Shown: piece after piece, positions 43,108 through 52,306 of the stretch
Numbering within the stretch: the first letter of the stretch is position 1
Layout: every line of letters starts with the position of its first letter
NCBI GenBank assembly: GCA_965248805.1
Contig: CBDFKJ010000008.1
Location: forward strand, 316,209-380,208
DNA: 64,000 nucleotides
Source: Alphaproteobacteria bacterium
GTDB lineage: Bacteria; Pseudomonadota; Alphaproteobacteria; UBA6615
Reading direction: 5' to 3'
Made by a program: the position numbers and the translations under genes
Notes under the pieces: generated by a model
The model's input: the letters and a program-made list of their open reading frames with translations, nothing else
The model's database searches: none
Told to the model about the DNA's origin: nothing

Positions 43108-46100
43108 CCGCCGCGGCTGCAGAGGACCGACGCGGGCCACACTGTGCGGACTTGGCGTTGGTGCAGTGGTGGGCGAGCGCGGATTATGGCTTCGGCGGGT
43201 CTCGGGTTGCTTGTGTGGCTTCGGAGTGATCGCCCCCGAGCCGGGCGAGCAACGCATCGCTCTCAACCAAATCGGGGCACTGAAACCCCTCGGTAAAAGG
43301 CTGGCGTGCGTTCGCGAGCATTTCGCGTGCCGCTGGCTGCAGGTTCCTGCGCTCCCACAAGCGCGCCAAGCTCAGGGCCGCGCGTAGCTCCATCGACCGC
43401 GCACGCAGCGATCGTGCGATCTCCAAGGACTTGCAATAACTGTCCTCGGCAGCGCCTTCCGCACCGCTGGACATGAGCAACTGACCGCGAAGACGATGAA
43501 GCTCTGCACTCCAGAAGCGTTCGCCCTTGCTCTCAATCATCGTCACCGCCACGTCCAAGGGCGCCAGACCGTCATCGGCGCGGCCGGCCGCGGCGAGTGC
43601 CTCGGCCAGCATGCCGAGGTACATCGGCACGCCGAGCCGGGCGCCGGTTTGCTGCCAGCGCGCGAGACCATCGCGAATTTGTTCGATACCCGCATCGGCG
43701 TCGCCTTCGAGCGCCGTGGCCCAGCCGGAGACAACGCCGGCCGTCGCCATCCAAAACGGAAAGCGCTGCTGGCGGCACAGCTCGATGCACTGATCGGCCA
43801 ACGCCTTCGCCTGCGCCGGCTCGCGCCGCGACACCCGCAGCATCGCCGCGAATAACAGCGCCGCGGCTTGCGTATGTGGCTGGCGCAGGTCTTGGCTCAG
43901 CCGCACGGCGTCGTCAAGCAACGCAACCGCCCGCTCCGGGTAGCCGAGATACCATTCGCTCCAACCCAGATAGATGCGTCCGCTGGTGCCCGGGTCCTGG
44001 GCAAGCGCCACGGCAAGATGCCCATGGCGTTCGCGGTCATAGGTGTCGACCACGCGTTGCATGTAGGAGCGGGTCTCCAAGAACCGTCCTTGGAAGAACA
44101 GGCAGGTGCCCAATACGCGATCGGCCTCGAATTGGAATACTTCGTCGCCCGCACTCTTGGCGTGGCGCGACAACTCGCCCGCGAGTTCGGTCGCCTGCAG
44201 GATCTCGCCGCGCGTCAAATGGAACAGGAACAGGCCGCGCAGGGCCCGGAACTGTGCCATTCCATCGCCGTCGTTGCGGCACATGTTACGTGCGCGCGCG
44301 AACACGGCCTCGACGTCGCTTGAGGCGCAACCCTTGCTGGCCATGAGAATGGGACCCAGCGCCGACAGGACCGTCAGTTCCAAGTCGTTGCGCGCCACAC
44401 GATCGGAGACCTGCGGGAGCAGTTGTCTTGCTTTCTCCAGGAGGTCGGCGGCCAGTGTGACTGCAGATCGCTCGCTGGCACGTTGCCCAGCTATCAACCA
44501 ATAGCGCACCGCCTCGACCGGCTGCTGGGCTTCGGTGAAGTGATGTGCAACGCGTGCCGGCTCGGCCGCGGCGAGTGACGGGAAACGGTCTACGAGCGCG
44601 GTCGCGACGCGGTTGTGAATGCGTCGGCGCTTACTGCGCAGCAAAGACTGTTCCGCAGCATCGCGCACCAGCGCGTGCTTAAACTCGTAGAAGGGCTTCG
44701 GAGACGTCCTCGCGGCGGAAGATCAGGCCGGCTTGTTCCAACCCGGACAAGGCCCCGACCAGAGCTTCCCGATCAAGATCGGTCGCCGCAGCCAACAGTT
44801 CCAGCGAAAAACTGCGACCGATCGTTGCGGCGATCTGTGCCACCTCCTTCACCGGCGCCGGCCGGTCGAGGCGGGCCATCAGGGAATCATGCAACGTCGC
44901 CGGTATCGCCGCCGGCGGCAGGGGGGCGTGCAACCGCAATGCGCCGCCGTCCTCTTTCAGATAGCCGGCGTCCAGGATCATCTGAGTGAGTTCCTCGACG
45001 AACAGCGGAACGCCATCGGTGCGGTCGACGATCGGGCCCAAGACTTCTGCCGGTAACTCGCGGCGCCCGGCGACTTCGCGCGCCAGCGCCATGGTCTCAT
45101 CGGCGCTCAATCGCGTCAGGCTCAATCGCTTGATATGGGGTTCATCCGGCCAGTGCGGCGTATGATCCGGGCGATAAGTGATCACGACCAGCATCGGTAC
45201 TTCGCGTGTGCGCGCGACCAGGCGGCCCAGGTATTCCAGTGTTGCCGGATCGATCCAATGCACATCCTCGCAAATCACCAGCACCAGGCAGGCCTTGGTG
45301 CGGTCGACAACGAGGTCGACCAGGATGTCGAGGGTCGCTTCCTTGGTGCGCTGCGCGCTGTCGGTCTGGGCGGCGGGCCGGCCAGGCGCGCGCAGCGATA
45401 ACAGCGATCCCAGGACCGGCAAGGCGGAATCGGCCGCCGGCCCCAGCAGACTGCGCAGCTTTTCGTAGCGGACTTCGTCCCGATCCGCATTCGAGATGCC
45501 GGCAGCGCGTTGAAACTGGCGGATGACCGGCTGCAGGGCGCCGCTCTGGTACATCGGACAACGGTAGTAGCGCAGCGTCGCGCCGTCGGTGCGCCGCTGA
45601 CTCTGACGCAGGATTTGCGTCAGGCGCGACTTTCCGATGCCCGGCTCGCCGGAGATCAGAACCGCATGGCCCGTTCCGTTGCAGGTTGAGGTCCACAACT
45701 GGCGCATGAGTTCGGCTTCGCCGGTTCGCCCGATCAACGGAACCAAGCCGCCGGCGTGCAGCGCCGCAAAACGGCTCTCGGCCTGTCCGGGCCCGACGAC
45801 CCGCCAAGCCGTGACCGGCGTCGGTGTAGGGGGACAAAAGTCTTTGAGAATTGCGAAGAGGTGCGAAGTGGTGCGAAGAGCTGCGACGAGGCCTTGTTAT
45901 TCAAAGGCTTGCGGCGCGGCGGCGATCGGATGGTCTAGAGACGAAAGTCTTTGTGAATCCGCCGTTCACCGGGCGTAAATGGCCTGGAAAAGATGATTTT
46001 CGGGCCGTTTCAGGGGCTGTTTATTGGGCGGTAAATTAAGGCCGTTTCGAGGGGTCTGAAATTGCCGCCCGTTTCCAGCATTGCGATCAGAGGCCCAATT

Positions 46101-46136
46101 TGCTACGCGAGGGGCAGTCGCAGCCCTCCAAGGCAC

Positions 46137-46247
46137 CTACTCTTTCAACGGTTCCAGTTTCTACGCACTTGTCGCAGGTCTCTATGTCGGGCCCGGTGGT
46201 AAGACTGCGCGCCCGTCGTCCATTGCCTTCAGAACGGAGCGCCACCT
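46137..46247 (-). pseudogene. degenerate second copy of the nuclease C-terminus (orphan tip relic)
   Basis: WRSVLKAMDDGR / SYHRARHRDLRQVRR aligns with WRAVIKATRDGR / TYHRADKEQLRRAER of the MuF tip; contains frameshifts. Confidence 0.65.
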
Positions 46248-46249
46248 CG

Positions 46250-46278
46250 TTGTAATCGCGCCAAGCCTGACCTAGAGT
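46250..46278 (+). promoter_or_regulatory. sigma70-type promoter TTGTAA-N17-TAGAGT, antisense to muF
   Basis: Exact 17-bp spacer; predicted +1 near 46285, just before the RNA fold. Confidence 0.6.
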
Positions 46279-46286
46279 GTGCCCCC

Positions 46287-46354
46287 GGCGCCTGAGTTCA
46301 CGGCTGGCCGGCCTTTCGAGGCCGCGGGGATGTTCCGACCCCCCAGGCGCCACC
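46287..46354 (+). ncRNA. candidate tRNA-like small RNA
   Basis: 8-bp terminal stem GGCGCCUG/CAGGCGCC followed by ACC, a GGCCU-UUCG-AGGCC hairpin and a GGGG-AUGUUCCGAC-CCCC T-arm-like hairpin. A covarying partial copy lies at 46109-46137. Confidence 0.55.
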
Positions 46355-46357
46355 TCT

Positions 46358-47548
46358 TTACGGCAGCGATCTCAAGCGCCTTTCCGCCCGGCGAAGCTGC
46401 TCCTTGTCTGCCCGGTGATAGGTGGCGAGGAAGGTTTTGCGTCCATCCCTGGTCGCCTTGATCACTGCCCTCCAGAGACGGCCATCATCGTCCAGGAATC
46501 CAATGGTGACGCGCTCGCCTTCCACGAACACTTCCCCCTCGTCGAATATTCGCTGGATACGGGCGTAGTCGCCGGGCGCGAGCTCGGGATGGCGGATGGT
46601 CTGCTTGGCGGCGGTCTCGCCGGAGAGGCGGACGGTGTGGGACCGGCCTCCGATGGCTTTTCTGATCGCTTTGGGCACGACCGCGACCGGCCAATCACCG
46701 TCGGAGGCACCGGAGAGATGGCGCGCGAACAGCGGTGTCCGCCAGGGCCGGCCGATGGCGGCCCTGGCCAACGCTTCAGGTGCGGTGTCGATCTTGGCGA
46801 TGAGGCGGTCGGCGGCGTCCCTGCCGGGGTTGATCCGCCCGACGTTGTGGGCGAAGCCGGGGTCGATGCCGGCTGGGACACGTTGGGTCTGTCCGGTGCG
46901 GCGGTTGACCCAGCGGCGGGTTTGTTGCGAGCCGGGCGGCGGGCCGGACGAGACCTTGTAGCCGTAGCGCTCGAGATCGTCGTCGGAGAGTTGCTGGACG
47001 ATGCAGCGGCAGCGCCAGCCGTTGGGCGGATAGTGAGTGTGCCAGAAGGGATGGTCGACGGGCAGCACGGTGCCGTGCCAGGCGGCATGCTGGGGCCTGG
47101 TGCGGGCGTCCCGGACAGCCACATAGCGCAGGTACGGCATCTGCTCCTTGAGGCGCTCGATGCCCTGCCAGCAGCCGTGGGCGTAGGCCATGCGGACGTT
47201 GGTGTCGAAAATGATGCGCAGGCGCCGCGGCGAGCCGAGTTGGACCATGCGGGTCTCGCCGGTGACCGGGTCGAGCATGGGCTGGCGGCCCCACCAGCCT
47301 TTCTTGCGCAGCGTGGGCTCGAGGTTGTCGCGGAACCAGTCGAAGGTCCGGCCGTCGGCAATCGCCGCGTCCATGGCCCCCCGGATGTCCTGGAGGATGT
47401 CGAGCTTCATGGCCTTGGCGACGGTGAAGCTCCTGACATGGGTGGCGGCGTCGGTATCGCGCCAGTCGAAGCCGACATGGAAGCCTTTGGCGCGGAAATG
47501 CTTGACGGCTTCCTCGGGCGGGATATCGAGGATCTCGGGCTCGGGCAC
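46358..47548 (-). CDS. Mu gpF-like minor head protein with C-terminal PBECR2-like nuclease domain
   Basis: FTVAKA, RRLRIIFDTN, HYPPNGWRCRC and DPGF, then an extension VRLS.ET..KQ..RHPEL...DY...WRAVIKAT.DG...LATYHR. Confidence 0.8.
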   Translation of the reverse strand: MPEPEILDIPPEEAVKHFRAKGFHVGFDWRDTDAATHVRSFTVAKAMKLDILQDIRGAMDAAIADGRTFDWFRDNLEPTLRKKGWWGRQPMLDPVTGETRMVQLGSPRRLRIIFDTNVRMAYAHGCWQGIERLKEQMPYLRYVAVRDARTRPQHAAWHGTVLPVDHPFWHTHYPPNGWRCRCIVQQLSDDDLERYGYKVSSGPPPGSQQTRRWVNRRTGQTQRVPAGIDPGFAHNVGRINPGRDAADRLIAKIDTAPEALARAAIGRPWRTPLFARHLSGASDGDWPVAVVPKAIRKAIGGRSHTVRLSGETAAKQTIRHPELAPGDYARIQRIFDEGEVFVEGERVTIGFLDDDGRLWRAVIKATRDGRKTFLATYHRADKEQLRRAERRLRSLP

Positions 47549-47554
47549 GGCGGA

Positions 47555-49009
47555 TCAGTCGTCGCCGGCGTCGTCATCCACCAGCCCGGCCTCACCGGAG
47601 AGCTCGGCCGAGAAGGCCGCGCGGTGGAGCTTGGTCGCCACCGGCGTCTCATCCATGCGGCCGTACAGGCCACCGAGGCCGTCGCGCACGTCCTGGAAGC
47701 CATCGGCATTGCGGATGGCATCGAGGACGGGCTCGATCATGGGCTCCATGAGGGGTTGCCAGCCGTCGAGCTCGGCGGCGAGCGCCCGGTCGATGGAATC
47801 GTCCCGGCCGGCTTCGGCAAAGGCGAACCGCTGCTCGGCGCTTGGCGCCGGCGCGTCCTCCCATTCGCCGCCGTAGGTGTCCTCGATGTAGCGCCGGGCC
47901 GGGCGCATCCCGCTCATGCGGGCGACGATCTCGTCGCGGGCGGCGCGGGCGCCCAGGTCCTCGGGCGGGGCGATCTCGCGCACGACGCGGGGACAGGCTG
48001 CGCCGGGATGGTTCCAATCGGTGAGCCAGCGGGCGACGGTGCGCTCGACGCCGGAGCAGATCATGCGCGACAGCGTGGCGACGCGTTCGTCACGCACCAG
48101 CTTCTGCACCTCGGCGGTGCCCTTCCACGGCCCCATCTCGGTGGTCGCGGTCTGCAACAGGACGGCCTCGACGATGAGGGCGTCCATGTATTTGCAGAAC
48201 TGGGCATGATCGCCGCCGCTGCGCCGGGTGGCCTCGAGGAACGTAATCTCCTGACCCTCTGGGATGGCGATGCCGGCACCCTGGGCCAACCGCTGGAGGG
48301 TCTCGAGGAGACGGTCGACCTCTTCGGTTGTCGCGTTGCGGCCGTGTTTGCCCATGGGCGTCGGGGTGCCGAACTTCTCGAGTGCCACGGCCCAGTGGCG
48401 GATGCCGTTGCGCTTCAGCCAGACCGGCCAGAAGCAGAGCCGGGCGGCGCCGGGCCCGTGGGCCTGGCCGCCGTGCTCGGCGGGCATGCGGGCGAGCCAG
48501 AACTTGGCCTCGGGCACCGGCGCGCCGCGAGGGTGGGTCCGGCTGATCAGGCGCAGGTCCCCGTCCGTGCCGAAGCGGAAGCGCTCGGGCGCACGGGTGC
48601 GGATGGCGGCGATCTCGACCCGGCCGCCGGCCGGTTGCCAGATGATCTCGGCCACCGAATAGCCGTACCAGACGGCGTGGGCCATCTCGCGGAAGGCGGT
48701 ATCGAAGTCGGCCGCCGCGAGCTGCTCGGCGAGGTCCTCGGCCGCCGCGGCATCGCGGCGCCCCGGCCCTCCCGGCTCGACGCGCCAGGGGATGGCCGAG
48801 ACCGCATCGAGCAGTTGGGCAAGGCTGGTGGCGGCCTTCTCGTCGCGCAGGGTCTCGCGCCAGGCCGCCGGCCCGCCGCGTAGAATGCTCTGTGGCGATC
48901 CCGTAGCGCCGATGAACGGCGAGAGCGCGGCATCGATGCCGCCGCCGGTGGCGGCGACCTCGCCGCGGGGCGGCCGCGCCGGGGTCTTTGATCTGCGGTT
49001 GCGCGCCAT
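47555..49009 (-). CDS. Mu gp29-like portal protein (DUF935)
   Basis: AVWYGYSVAEIIW, W...LEKFGTP and IPEG.EITFLE; sits between terminase and muF. Confidence 0.85.
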   Translation of the reverse strand: MARNRRSKTPARPPRGEVAATGGGIDAALSPFIGATGSPQSILRGGPAAWRETLRDEKAATSLAQLLDAVSAIPWRVEPGGPGRRDAAAAEDLAEQLAAADFDTAFREMAHAVWYGYSVAEIIWQPAGGRVEIAAIRTRAPERFRFGTDGDLRLISRTHPRGAPVPEAKFWLARMPAEHGGQAHGPGAARLCFWPVWLKRNGIRHWAVALEKFGTPTPMGKHGRNATTEEVDRLLETLQRLAQGAGIAIPEGQEITFLEATRRSGGDHAQFCKYMDALIVEAVLLQTATTEMGPWKGTAEVQKLVRDERVATLSRMICSGVERTVARWLTDWNHPGAACPRVVREIAPPEDLGARAARDEIVARMSGMRPARRYIEDTYGGEWEDAPAPSAEQRFAFAEAGRDDSIDRALAAELDGWQPLMEPMIEPVLDAIRNADGFQDVRDGLGGLYGRMDETPVATKLHRAAFSAELSGEAGLVDDDAGDD

Positions 49010-50427
49010 CAGTGCCAGCCGCTCCAGTCGGTGCCGCCGTTGACGATGTTGAGGCGCCGGTCGATGGCGTAGGCATCATTGTCGCCGCCGTAGGCGGCCA
49101 GCCCTGAGTAACGGCCATTGGTGGTGCGCGCGGTAAAGGGCCCGGTCGTATCGGCCGCCGCGGCGCAGGCCAAGGCAATGGCCCAGAAGCGGTCGGCATG
49201 GCCGTCGGTGGCGCTGCGTTCGGCGACAAGACGGGGGGCGCCGGTGGCGCCGGCCTCGGCGCGCACGCTGTGCAGGTCGCGCCTGAGCTCGTCATCGGCG
49301 GGAATGCGCAGGCGGCGGTCTTCCAGGACCTCGCGCAGAGCCGTGGCGACATCGAGCTTGCGGGGTGCGGACATCTGCACCCCCTCGACGTGCAGCCGGC
49401 CGTGCGTGTCCTGAAGGCGTTCGACCATCATCTCGCCCATGCCGGTCTGGTCGACCGCGATGCGCAGTGGCCGGTAGCGCCGATCGAGTGCGGCGACGAT
49501 CGCCTCCTGCTCGGAAAAGGTGATGTTGTGGCGAACCACCAGCTCGCGCAGCCAGAGCACGTCGCCCACCGTCTCGACCGCGGCGGCGACCCAGAGGTCG
49601 TGGCGGCGCGCGATGTCGATGCCGATATGGGCCGGACCGCCCGCATAGCCGTCGGGCGCTCCGGCACCGGTGTCTTCGGCGGCGCGGATCAGCTCCCAGG
49701 CGAGCCAGGCACCGGCACCGGCCGACGGTACGCAATCCAACTCCTCCGCCGCGCGGATGCCGTATCGGTGGCGGATCTCCGCCTCCCACACCGCCTCGGC
49801 CTCTGGTGACCAGTCCTGCCCCGTAACCGCACAGATGCGTTCGTACAGCCCCTCGGCGAGCGCCTGTCCCAAGGTGACCGTATGCAGGCTGCCGGAGGTC
49901 ACGCCGTCGCGGATATCGCGCACCAGCGCGGCAAACGGCGAGGCCTCGCCGTCATGGGTCGAGAGGACATGCACGCGGCCGCCCCACAGGCCGAAGGCCA
50001 GTGCGGCCTTGAGCACCTCGCCGAGGTCGTCGACGAAGGCGGCCTCGTCGATGACGGCGACATCGCCCGGCCGGCCCTTGGAGCGGAAGGCGCGCGGCGC
50101 CGCCCCTTCGATGGCGGCGCGGATCGCGGCCGCGGTATCGGCCGTGAGGCCGGCCTTGGTTGCAGCCTTGTCGGCGGCGTGGGCCGCTTCTCTCAGAACC
50201 TGACGGCGCTCGCGGCGGATCGAGATCGAGGCCCGCGCGACCTCGGCAAGGGCACGGGCGGCAGCAGTGATCTGCTTCATGTCGCCCCGTTCGGCGGCGA
50301 GCAGGAGATCGAAGATAAGGGTCTGCACTTGGCGCAAGGCGCCCTCGGCCAGGGCGCCGGCATCGTCAGGCGTGGCCGCCAGCAGGGTTTCCGCCTGCTC
50401 GGTGGCCAGACGGGTCTGCTCGATCCG
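49009..50427 (-). pseudogene. in-frame deletion fusion of DUF3486 (Mu gp27-like) remnant and terminase large subunit C-terminal part
   Basis: ..AGLTADTAAAIRAAIEG|APRAFRSKGRPGDVAVIDEAAF, GIDIARRHDL, DQTGMG and GHADRFWA; the terminase Walker A region is absent. Confidence 0.75.
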
Positions 50428-50429
50428 AG

Positions 50430-50603
50430 GTGCCGACCACGCTCGCGCGCGTCACCGATATCGACCTCACCCTGCAATCGGTCGGCGCCGGCTGGTCGTG
50501 GGTGCTCGACAACAAGAACGATCCCACCCGCATCAAGATCTTCGACGGCAGCGGCAATGCCGCCGACGCCACCGTCGACGCCGTCCTGCACGGCATCGCC
50601 TGA
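50430..50603 (+). pseudogene. 3' fragment of a probable tail protein gene
   Basis: Open frame ..IDLTLQSVGAGWSWVL..RIKIFDGSG..DATVDAVLHGIA* begins abruptly at the deletion junction. Confidence 0.45.
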
Positions 50604-50628
50604 CGCTCAAACGAAGGAGAGAGGCCCC

Positions 50629-51291
50629 ATGGCCTGGCCCACCGACGACCTCGCCACCGACCACTTCGATGCCGGCGCCGACAGCCCGGCCGACGCCCGG
50701 CCCGTGCTCAAGCGGGTGATCGACTACCTCAAGGCGATTATCGCGGCGCTGGGTGTCGCAGGCGGCATCTGCGAGCTCAACGCCAACGCCAAGGTGCCCG
50801 ACGGTCGCATCGGCCGCGGCGCCGCCGACGGCGTCGCGCCCCTCGACGCAGCGGGCAAGCTGCCCGTCACCCACCTGCCGGACGCCACCACCGACGCCGC
50901 CGGCGCCGTGCCGCTCGCAACCGATGCCGAGGCCGAGAACGCCTCCGGGACCGGCGTCCTCCAGGCCCGCCAGATCGCACTGCGCGCCGCGACCACAGGC
51001 CGGGCCGGCGCCGCCGAGCTTGCCACGACCGCGGAAGCGCTCTCCGGACAAGACCAGACGCGCGCCATGACACCCTCCGCCACCAAGGCGGCCATCGACG
51101 CCGCCATCGCCACCGTGCCCGGCGGTATTACAAACGTCCTTCTCGCGAACACGACCGGCCCCAACCAGGGACAAGGCAGCATTCTTGTTAAAACGACATA
51201 CGCGCTCCAAAGAAGCGTCAGTGGCGGAACCGTCACCGTCACCTTGGTCAAGACCAATCACTATGAAGAGGAAGACGATGATGGTGAGTGA
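50629..51291 (+). CDS. tail-fibre-like protein
   Basis: AAGGAG RBS and repeats ATTDAAGAVPLATDAEA / ATTGRAGAAELATTAEA...AMTP of phage tail-fibre type. Confidence 0.6.
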   Translation: MAWPTDDLATDHFDAGADSPADARPVLKRVIDYLKAIIAALGVAGGICELNANAKVPDGRIGRGAADGVAPLDAAGKLPVTHLPDATTDAAGAVPLATDAEAENASGTGVLQARQIALRAATTGRAGAAELATTAEALSGQDQTRAMTPSATKAAIDAAIATVPGGITNVLLANTTGPNQGQGSILVKTTYALQRSVSGGTVTVTLVKTNHYEEEDDDGE

Positions 51292-52306
51292 TCAGCCGCC
51301 AGGAGTGCCCTGCTATTTCGGCTCGTCGGCGAGATCGAAGCAGAAGAGCAATGCTATCGAACGCATGGTGGCAGGCGCGGCTAACCGGCATACCGAATTT
51401 CCAGCCTAAAACACGCCGGAAATCGGGGCGATTTTCCAGGCCATTTGCAAAGACTTTTGTCCCGATTCTGAAAGACTTTTGTCCGCTTACAGTCGGGAAA
51501 CCCTTCAGGCGACGTTCGCCCAAATTCTCATAGATGAAAACGCCGCCGGCCAGCCGCTTAGTGACCGATCCGATCACGACGGTGTCAGGCGCGGCTTCGG
51601 CTTGGAGCCGGGCGGCGCGGTGCGGCGTATCGCCCAAGACGGATGCCTCCGCGACACCACCGCCTGCCGCGTCGCCAACGACTACCAATCCGGTGGCGAT
51701 GCCTACACGAACGTGGACGCCGTCCCTGACATCCAGGCCGCGCACTGCCTCGACGATGTCCAGTCCGGTTTGGATAGCTCGCTCGGCATCGTCTTCGTGG
51801 GCACGCGTATAGCCGAAATAGGCGACGAAACCGTCTCCCAGGTACTGGGCGATCATGCCGTTGTGATCGGCCACGACATCTGCGCAGGCGCTGCGAAACT
51901 GCCGAATGACCGCGGCGAATTCCTCCGGGTCCATCGTGCTCACCAACTCGGTCGAATCGACCAAATCGCAAAACATCACGGTCAATTGGCGGCGCTCGGC
52001 CTCGGAGTCGCTGATACCGGCCAACGGTTGGGCCACCGCCAGCGGCGAGCCACAGTCGCCGCAATACTTGGCTGCCGGCGGGTTGGCCGCGCCGCAGGCA
52101 TGGCATTGGCGGGGTAACTGTGCGCCGCAGTTGGTGCAGAATCGTTTCGTCGATGGCGACGGTTCGCCGCAGCCGGGGCAGTTCATGTCCGCCGCTTCAT
52201 CGGTTGCGGCGTCGCCGGGCATGTCGGACGGCGAGCCGATCGGCCGACCGAGGCTCGGCAGGGTCGGTCGGCGATCGGAAGGCCGCTTTCCACTTTGGTC
52301 CCGGTC

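Follow-up and report, generated by a model that had tools for sequence, protein, structure and literature searches.

The window analysed here, a stretch of 64,000 nt from an alphaproteobacterial contig (GenBank CBDFKJ010000008.1, positions 316,209 to 380,208), holds a Mu-like prophage in which the gene for a minor head protein, MuF, is followed by a small structured RNA gene and then by the remains of a second such pair. These remains comprise a frameshifted relic of the C-terminal tip of MuF at 46145-46250 and, directly behind its stop, a partial copy of the RNA gene. We consider it likely, with a probability of about 0.8, that they are a dead fragment marking the former meeting point of two convergent 3' gene ends, and that the fragment arose by recombination among prophages resident in the same genome. 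It contains the last ~38 codons of another tip allele and ~52 nt of the partner RNA gene, lodged between the live tip/RNA pair and the transposase-binding end of the prophage. As a fossil the relic is modest; its value is that it exposes an exchangeable module of tip-end and small-RNA gene, and together with the breakpoints described below it shows that the two move jointly between co-resident prophages.

The relic is read from the minus strand in two frames, and both of its blocks (Table 1) are collinear with the end of the live MuF protein, ...RLWRAVIKATRDGRKTFLATYHRADKEQLRRAERRLRSLP*, with the stop at the equivalent place. A preliminary description of this DNA, made from the sequence alone, had claimed 8 of 12 identical residues in the first block; counting by eye from the translations gives the same figure, and 7 of 15 for the second block. 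Scored by BLOSUM62 local alignment against the live 60-aa tip, the best single frame of the relic reaches 46, a value attained by 1 of 1000 dinucleotide shuffles and by none of 1034 natural 181-nt stretches of the window. The best two frames together score 83, above all shuffles (maximum 73) and all natural stretches (maximum 79). The frameshift between the blocks is an 11-nt deletion relative to a second prophage copy of the same genome (L003), whose relic retains the residues AVFLATYHRA that the deletion removed from the window copy, and in the L003 relic tblastn with the live tip finds a 22-aa match of 72.7% identity (E 2e-9, from a small database). That 46145-46250 is a true homologue of the MuF tip is confirmed by these protein-level comparisons. 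At the DNA level, alignment of the relic with the live end by blastn-like scoring yields a 13-mer only, which was equalled by 159 of 2000 shuffles and is not significant. This result counts against the relic, and the signal therefore sits at the protein level.

The segment beginning 7 nt past the relic stop reads GGUGCCUUG-GAGGG-10-nt loop-CCCUC-GCG on the plus strand, and its counterpart after the live stop reads GGCGCCUG-GGGGGU-loop-AUCCCC-GCG. It corresponds to the first strand of the closing helix (P1) and the first hairpin (P2) of the live RNA, so the partial RNA copy proposed earlier is there, although far from intact: the covariance model built for the RNA (R1) gives it 12.3 bits (E 2), compared with 61.7 bits for the live copy and 59.7-83.5 bits for live close copies. 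Compared with the 11 live RNA types in turn, it is 55-65% identical, the adjoining live RNA standing at 59%. Because the promoter and the promoter-side strand of P1 are both missing, this RNA copy must be regarded as dead, and the relic as a whole appears to be now without function.

The host genome (4.58 Mb in 9 contigs) contains 18 MuF matches, of which 8 besides that of the window are near full length with 89-96% identity, and at least nine near-complete copies, plus fragments, of one family of Mu-like transposable siphophages (window 45825-51491; contigs C3 and C5-C9). Four of these copies have the relic, namely the window copy, C9:98832 (L003), C8:208603 (L004) and one at a contig edge (C3:438-886), and all four have one shared type of phage end. 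The damage differs from copy to copy: the window has its 11-nt deletion, L003 has three 1-nt insertions, and in L004 the middle has been replaced. Such independent damage in paralogous copies marks the relic as a pseudogene. No relic was found below E 1e-3 behind the other 5 near-complete copies of the genome or in 10 loci searched from elsewhere; the P0029 matches in that search stem from a gene call that reads through into the RNA and are not relics. In L003 (MuF at C9:99376-100560), the MuF stop has changed from TAG to TGG, and the frame continues through the RNA element into the relic as an open frame of 471 aa.

The tail of the relic is closer to tips of other phages than to its neighbour. 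Compared as proteins, it scores 61 and 63 against the intact metagenomic sequences P0004 and P0011 (...RDLWQARRKWE...), only 37 against the adjoining live tip and 18-34 against other tips of the same genome, and tblastn gives E 9e-6 for P0011 and E 2e-5 for P0004. Taken at the level of these alignments, the relic is thus shown to be a different allele from the adjoining live tip, not a local duplicate of it. The further claim that a new cassette had displaced an older one holds for the difference in allele and is not supported for the order of age. Neither end of the relic is native. The relic starts at TRWRSV, within the variable segment of the tip, and its upstream neighbour is the promoter of the live RNA, with the -35 box directly adjoining. 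Such junctions would also fit a different history, in which a piece of DNA became trapped between the phage end and the promoter of the live RNA. The sequence is compatible both with this and with the joining of a new tip/RNA/promoter block into a resident tip, followed by a later deletion of the old promoter.

Table 1. Features discussed in the text, in window coordinates
Feature	Position	Strand	Basis or remarks
MuF, Mu gp30-like minor head protein, 396 aa	46358..47548	-	Phage_Mu_F, phrog_220, identity to Mu gp30
C-terminal tip of MuF, PBECR3-like putative RNase or RNA-binding domain	46361..46765	-	Residues 262-396
Exchangeable segment, last ~57 codons past conserved ...EGEVF	46361..46530	-	60-nt bins compared with six other copies
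Hypervariable arginine-rich tail, last ~17-22 codons	46361-46425	-	Part of the exchangeable segment
Live structured small RNA, 65 nt	46287..46351	+ (inferred from promoter)	P1, P2, P3, joiner; covariation
Sigma-70-like promoter (predicted)	46250..46278	+	TTGTAA (46250-46255), 17-nt spacer, TAGAGT (46273-46278), 8 nt to P1
MuF tip-allele relic	46145..46250	-	~38 terminal codons of another tip allele, with a frameshift
Relic block 1, TRWRSVLKAMDDGRAV	46203-46250	-	One minus-strand frame, window translation
Relic block 2, SYHRARHRDLRQVRRNWNR and stop	46145-46204	-	Second minus-strand frame; stop at 46145-46147
Small-RNA gene relic, ~52 nt	46086..46137	+	One P1 strand, P2 GAGGG/CCCUC, degenerate P3/joiner
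Prophage end region	45825..46085		Repeated motifs; 71-99% identity to ends of other copies
Deletion derivative of Mu-like transposable prophage, 5.7 kb	45825..51491		Inserted in a cyclase/AAA_16/TPR gene

How such a fragment could arise is indicated by comparison of the live copies with each other. Against four other copies, the window MuF gene is 95-100% identical in 60-nt bins up to about position 46589, after which the identity drops to 58-65%, 67-75% and 45-49% in the last three bins. Against copy T2_C8, the first 960 nt of the gene are 100% identical and the last four bins 95, 58, 67 and 47%. Against two relic-bearing copies, only the last bin is low (45-49%), the RNA region is ~86% identical, and relic and phage end are 85-99% identical; for L003 in particular, the phage end is 98-99%, the RNA region ~86%, and a 100-nt block with the tail 58% identical. 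The break in identity falls just past the conserved ...EGEVF motif. In mean pairwise identity over ten instances, the tail stands at 32%, the preceding 62 aa at 60% and the RNA at 68%. A sharp drop confined to the last ~57 codons points to recombination between copies, and because MuF abuts the phage end, one crossover within MuF would swap tip-end, RNA and phage end together. As far as sequence comparison can tell, tip-end and RNA gene are shown by this to pass between related prophages as a block, often with the whole phage end. At another locus (L071/L074 in genome G235, contig C2), MuF is interrupted by ~1.3 kb of foreign DNA right past ...IFDEGEV, which is the same switch point, and tip-end, promoter and RNA (81.5 bits) survive in the downstream half.

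Among other accounts of the relic, the one that fares best is a local tandem duplication of the MuF 3' end and RNA, after which the downstream copy fell into decay and the upstream one was altered by divergence or conversion. Relic and live copy do lie in direct orientation, ~214 bp apart, and within its own genome the relic finds its top match in the adjoining live tip (83 versus 60-75). A 13-nt direct repeat, GCGCCACCTC(G/T)TT, at 46239-46251 (relic start) and 46347-46359 (by the MuF stop) brackets the live RNA and its promoter. The quality of this repeat is, however, the one reached by 159 of 2000 shuffles, so that it may be due to chance; the relic tail prefers the tails of other phages (61-63) to that of its neighbour (37), and the relic RNA is no nearer to the adjoining RNA than to the other types. 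We therefore regard a local duplication as improbable. Still less probable is that the relic serves as a silent donor cassette for tail switching, either by gene conversion like the silent copies of pilin or vls genes, or as the template repeat of a diversity-generating retroelement. The tail is the part that changes fastest, and a partial, promoterless copy that adjoins the expressed one and is retained by four prophages would suit such a role, but those four copies have suffered differing indels, with the middle replaced in one, and no relic was found behind the other 5 copies or in the 10 loci mentioned above. Similarity to the live tail is also far too low for a template repeat. The retroelement version was rejected, since the differences, as read in the alignment, are not confined to adenines, and a Pfam scan of the 32 open reading frames (ORFs) of a full copy revealed no reverse transcriptase. 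Chance resemblance in G+C-rich non-coding DNA, to which the failed DNA-level alignment and unremarkable single-sequence folding z-scores would be congenial, is barely credible in view of the protein-level controls, the better-preserved paralogous relic and the collinear way in which block 1, block 2, the stop, the P1 strand and P2 follow one another.

The live RNA has a well-defined fold. From 11 instances it consists of the 8-bp closing helix P1, the 5-bp hairpin P2 stacked on P1, and a short hairpin P3, arranged as a three-way junction; RNAalifold returns the same fold. In the structural alignment of these instances, 92.6% of the cells are paired and both partners vary in 10 of 16 pairs; sliding the partners by 1-3 columns reduces the pairing to 37-53%. 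The observed values on four of five measures were not reached by any of 500 shuffles, and the fifth was reached by 18. The replacement of GGGG/CCCC by GAGGG/CCCUC in the relic stem had been put forward as independent support for the structure, and the family-wide covariation agrees: the G-C to A-U exchange is alignment pair 10-27, which takes four forms among the 11 members (AU 4, CG 3, GC 3, UA 1). In addition, the P2 loop probably pairs with the joiner over 4 bp to form a pseudoknot. At the two variable positions of this helix, ten distinct instances give 17 paired cells of 20, a figure equalled by 0 of 5000 permutations. The joiner 4-mer was picked here by a rule set after reading the sequences, namely that it ends with the final CG of the joiner; an earlier, wrong register gave 10 of 18, equalled by 519 of 5000. 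Between 45700 and 46700 on both strands, Rfam offers only three chance-level matches (E 1.6-6.1, 11-17 bits) and no family. A tRNA-like nature was rejected, as ARAGORN finds neither a tRNA nor a tmRNA, and the element does not form a tandem array in 45700-46700, with one R1 match per locus.

The RNA keeps company with one type of tip. R1 finds 8 strong copies in the genome, and a weaker, independent one of 32.7 bits on contig C5 beside a tip with 34% identity. All six fetched loci with close tips match (all six were used to train the model). Of 13 further loci, taken from 401 genomes of the class, R1 matches 4 at E < 0.01, in each case 5-35 nt past the tip. There is no match below E 0.1 in 14 loci with other MuF tips or none, and none in 45 other genomes of the order. 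Within these samples the co-occurrence is shown to be strict, the RNA being found only beside the PBECR3-like tip. Against this stands the near-intact tip of L060, which has no RNA; its last three codons and everything downstream have been replaced at a rearrangement junction. It had been proposed that tip and RNA travel as one unit, and the question raised whether each RNA protects only its cognate tip. The first part stands at the level of the family, where both co-occurrence and breakpoints agree with it. Matching of RNA to tip at the level of alleles, in contrast, is not borne out, as near-identical RNAs (96, 87 and 87% identity) occur with divergent tails (50, 41 and 33%), and tail and RNA distances correlate poorly (Spearman 0.26, naive p 0.09).

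More distant tips (31-40% identity; L031, L041, L069 and L072, with variants L042-L048, L063 and L066) have, directly behind the MuF stop, an RNA-like element that is GC-rich and larger, at 104-121 nt. It has a closing helix of 8-11 bp and a GYGGG...CCCRC hairpin, and the motif GGAGAAUAUCACCG is shared. Its helix begins 1-2 nt past the stop in L041 and L069, the next late gene points in the same direction in L069 and L072, and a weaker promoter-like site is located 6-8 nt from the helix on the opposite strand. If this element is indeed an RNA of the same layout, the pairing of protein and RNA would be old and widespread. Several database gene calls for this MuF family (P0027, P0029, P0032 and P0042) end in ...APGG(S/P) or in longer odd tails that are translations of the closing helix and first hairpin, and hence represent read-through or mis-called stops and not real protein tails.

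The direction of the RNA is indicated by a predicted promoter. At the site given in Table 1, 8 of 12 hexamer positions match by eye. A homologous site opposite MuF has its -10 box 6-9 nt before P1 in 13 of 13 copies, with 7-10 of 12 matches, and the mean promoter score, taking the top-scoring site of each copy, is 8.5 compared with 6.0 for the coding side as control and 6.2 for shuffles. Four of four fresh copies have the same arrangement (TTGAAA-17-TAAATT, TTGACA-18-TATCAA, TTGCAA-18-TATCCT and TTGCAT-17-TAGAGT). Since all 17 copies have such a site on the strand opposite MuF, the RNA is probably a small-RNA gene of its own that converges on MuF, and not a trailer of the MuF message; in the window, another site scores one match above TTGTAA/TAGAGT, and a stricter promoter scan flags this site in L002 and none in the window. 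We are fairly confident that the RNA is encoded on the plus strand. Several observations count against this reading: the folding energy is undecided and favours the MuF-sense strand in 4 of 12 cases and the opposite strand in 8 of 12, with nearly equal means (-31.1 versus -31.8 kcal/mol), wobble pairs point to both strands, and no canonical terminator follows the RNA on the strand of the promoter. A terminator reading of the element was discarded, because no terminator-like site occurs in 45700-46700, and in type-2 copies the hairpin with T-run found behind the RNA falls on the spacer and -35 box of the promoter. By eye, no conserved ORF was seen on the strand of the RNA outside the window. 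The RNA occupies the place where other MuF tips have a downstream ORF.

In its body, the protein partner MuF matches Pfam Phage_Mu_F (PF04233; E 9.3e-20, 71.9 bits against a cut-off of 29.6) and phrog_220 'minor head protein and DNA pilot' (E 7.5e-96), and shares 39% identity with Escherichia coli Mu gp30 over residues 9-265 (E 1e-61). Homologous bodies bear other ends, such as ART (PF01129, E 1.9e-12), PBECR2 (PF18810, E 4.6e-22), an HExxH-type domain, or none. Residues 262-396 alone, by sequence searches, match nothing in Pfam, PHROG or the PDB, and hhalign probabilities are as low as 0.4% when they are set against four PBECR2 tips and 0.2% when set against the C-terminus of Mu gp30. GenBank phages yielded one weak match to the tip (22.8% identity) and a metagenome scan one locus; a profile of 11 tips found 1239 representative clusters at E <= 0.001. 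A domain scan covered 150 sequences, the best 149 of these 1239 relatives and the window tip. Phage_Mu_F is carried by 52 of the 150, and PBECR3 (PF18812) is matched by 9, with a best E of 3.9e-7; the four PBECR3 matches that were located span profile positions 6-114 of 115 within the homologous region, at 18.9-27.1 bits and hence below the 30-bit cut-off. PBECR domains fused to MuF are described as having an active histidine and a threonine or serine in the passages of Iyer et al. (2017, PMC5512222) considered here. In the tips, His64, Lys108 and Thr110 are invariant in 11 sequences, and at least 90% of the 150 sequences retain His64 and Lys108. From these features, the window tip may reasonably be taken for a putative nuclease. 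Weighing against it, neither the window tip nor 10 of the 11 rows of the tip alignment has a Pfam family (the eleventh gives a chance-level CREG match only), and no PBECR3 match reaches the gathering score. The 'nuclease tip' of the preliminary description is accordingly a putative one.

Taken together, these features allow a model in which related prophages exchange the last ~57 MuF codons together with the RNA gene, often with the whole phage end, and the RNA would be transcribed from its own promoter towards the MuF end. The live RNA may then restrain or regulate the RNase-like tip, either as antisense to the convergent MuF message or as an inhibitor bound to the domain, which is the role we think most likely, at somewhat less than even odds. 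That the 65-80-nt pseudoknotted RNA is a dedicated protective or regulatory partner of a head-borne PBECR3-like RNase tip, exchanged with it as one module of which the relic is the fossil, is as a complete account rather unlikely. If true, it would place an RNA where polymorphic-toxin loci usually have an immunity protein. A conserved structured RNA gene tied to one tip family offers a concrete partner for the question of how the producing cell is spared: should the RNA inhibit or regulate the tip, a polymorphic-toxin-like system would for the first time have an RNA as its 'immunity', and should it not, it would still represent a new phage RNA family with a defined fold and a predicted promoter.

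The prophage that houses these genes is bounded by inverted ends, 5'-TGTAGGGGGACAAAAG... and ...CTTTTGTCCGCTTACA-3', which begin with TG and finish with CA, and by a 5-bp target duplication, GTCGG, at 45820-45824 and 51492-51496. The blastn matches to other copies terminate at 45824/45825 and at 51491-51497, and the cyclase, AAA_16 and TPR parts of the split host gene are found on both flanks. The end region has repeats of GAC(A/G)AAAGTCTTTG(A/T)GAAT at 45833 and 45940 and three TGCGAAG units at 45852-45891 with 10-bp spacing (overlapping 20-nt copies) next to the terminal repeat, presumed to be transposase-binding sites. Full prophages of ~39 kb encode Mu transposase DDE_2, GemA, Mor, gp27, capsid, tape measure and gpJ. 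No gene stands between MuF and the prophage end, the MuF stop being ~530 bp from the terminal repeat; a terminase fragment and a Mu-type portal gene precede MuF on the same strand. Because the early region and the head genes as far as MuF are all oriented towards one end, MuF comes to adjoin the terminal repeat, in contrast to E. coli Mu. MuF bodies with 60-80% identity (loci L013-L037) occur in metagenome-assembled genomes labelled as very different phyla, namely Binatia, Acidobacteria, Nitrospirales, Gammaproteobacteria and Rhodobacteraceae, which suggests either a very broad host range in one habitat or binning errors.

Orphan modules of toxin tip and immunity gene are known downstream of cdiA, the toxin gene of contact-dependent inhibition (CDI), and of rhs genes, and the preliminary description had likened the relic to them. 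As in these loci, a conserved body carries an exchangeable C-terminal end, with a sharp break past a conserved motif (here ...EGEVF, where identity falls from 95-100% to 45-67% over the last three 60-nt bins), and the expressed tip is followed at once by another, truncated tip and its partner. The likeness does not extend further. The partner is an RNA gene and not an immunity protein, only half a domain is exchanged and not a whole toxin domain, and the relic is decayed; it starts inside the variable segment, without the upstream conserved segment that would serve homologous exchange, and is followed by an RNA fragment of 12.3 bits in place of an intact partner. It also represents a single event in one lineage, at a phage head gene near the end of a transposable prophage.

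To our knowledge, MuF-type phage toxins and PBECR domains are known from comparative genomics only. The MuF protein described here resembles the polymorphic toxins of Jamet et al. (2017, PMC5576092) in its N-terminal Phage_Mu_F domain and in the differing C-terminal domains found on homologous bodies. In the passages of that paper on MuF toxins, protection is ascribed to immunity proteins and orphan modules are not mentioned; the present locus differs from the family so described in having no downstream ORF but a structured RNA gene in that place. With the PBECR/MuF-C domains (PMC5512222), as far as presented in the passages considered, the tip shares the C-terminal fusion to MuF, and it has a conserved histidine in its N-terminal part with a threonine further on, the arrangement given there for active domains, but the window tip itself matches no Pfam model and its relatives match PBECR3 weakly over nearly the whole profile. 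In the literature found, comprising listings, the beginnings of abstracts and selected passages, an RNA partner of a MuF tip is not described, and within that literature the exchangeable module of tip-end and small RNA appears not to have been described previously.

Of the phage RNAs, the pRNA of phi29, an Rfam family, also has a three-way junction, paired 5' and 3' ends and covarying loop contacts, and is encoded at the end of the phage genome beside head and portal genes. The RNA described here likewise forms a three-way junction with paired ends at a phage genome end, but it has no sequence or model similarity to pRNA, is much smaller at 65-80 nt, and is tied to one MuF tip type and not to the portal. 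Similar in arrangement are the type I toxin-antitoxin pairs txpA/RatA and bsrG/SR4, in which antitoxin RNAs of prophages are convergent with the toxin gene and overlap its 3' end, and similar in logic is the type III pair ToxIN, in which a pseudoknotted RNA inhibits an endoRNase. The protein here is a 396-aa virion protein of putative toxicity and not a small membrane peptide as in type I, and the RNA is single-copy and not a tandem array as in type III, its inhibitory role being putative. The locus would thus have a type I layout, with a small RNA gene that has its own predicted promoter and converges on the 3' end of a putative toxin gene, and a type III logic, with a pseudoknotted RNA beside a putative RNase.

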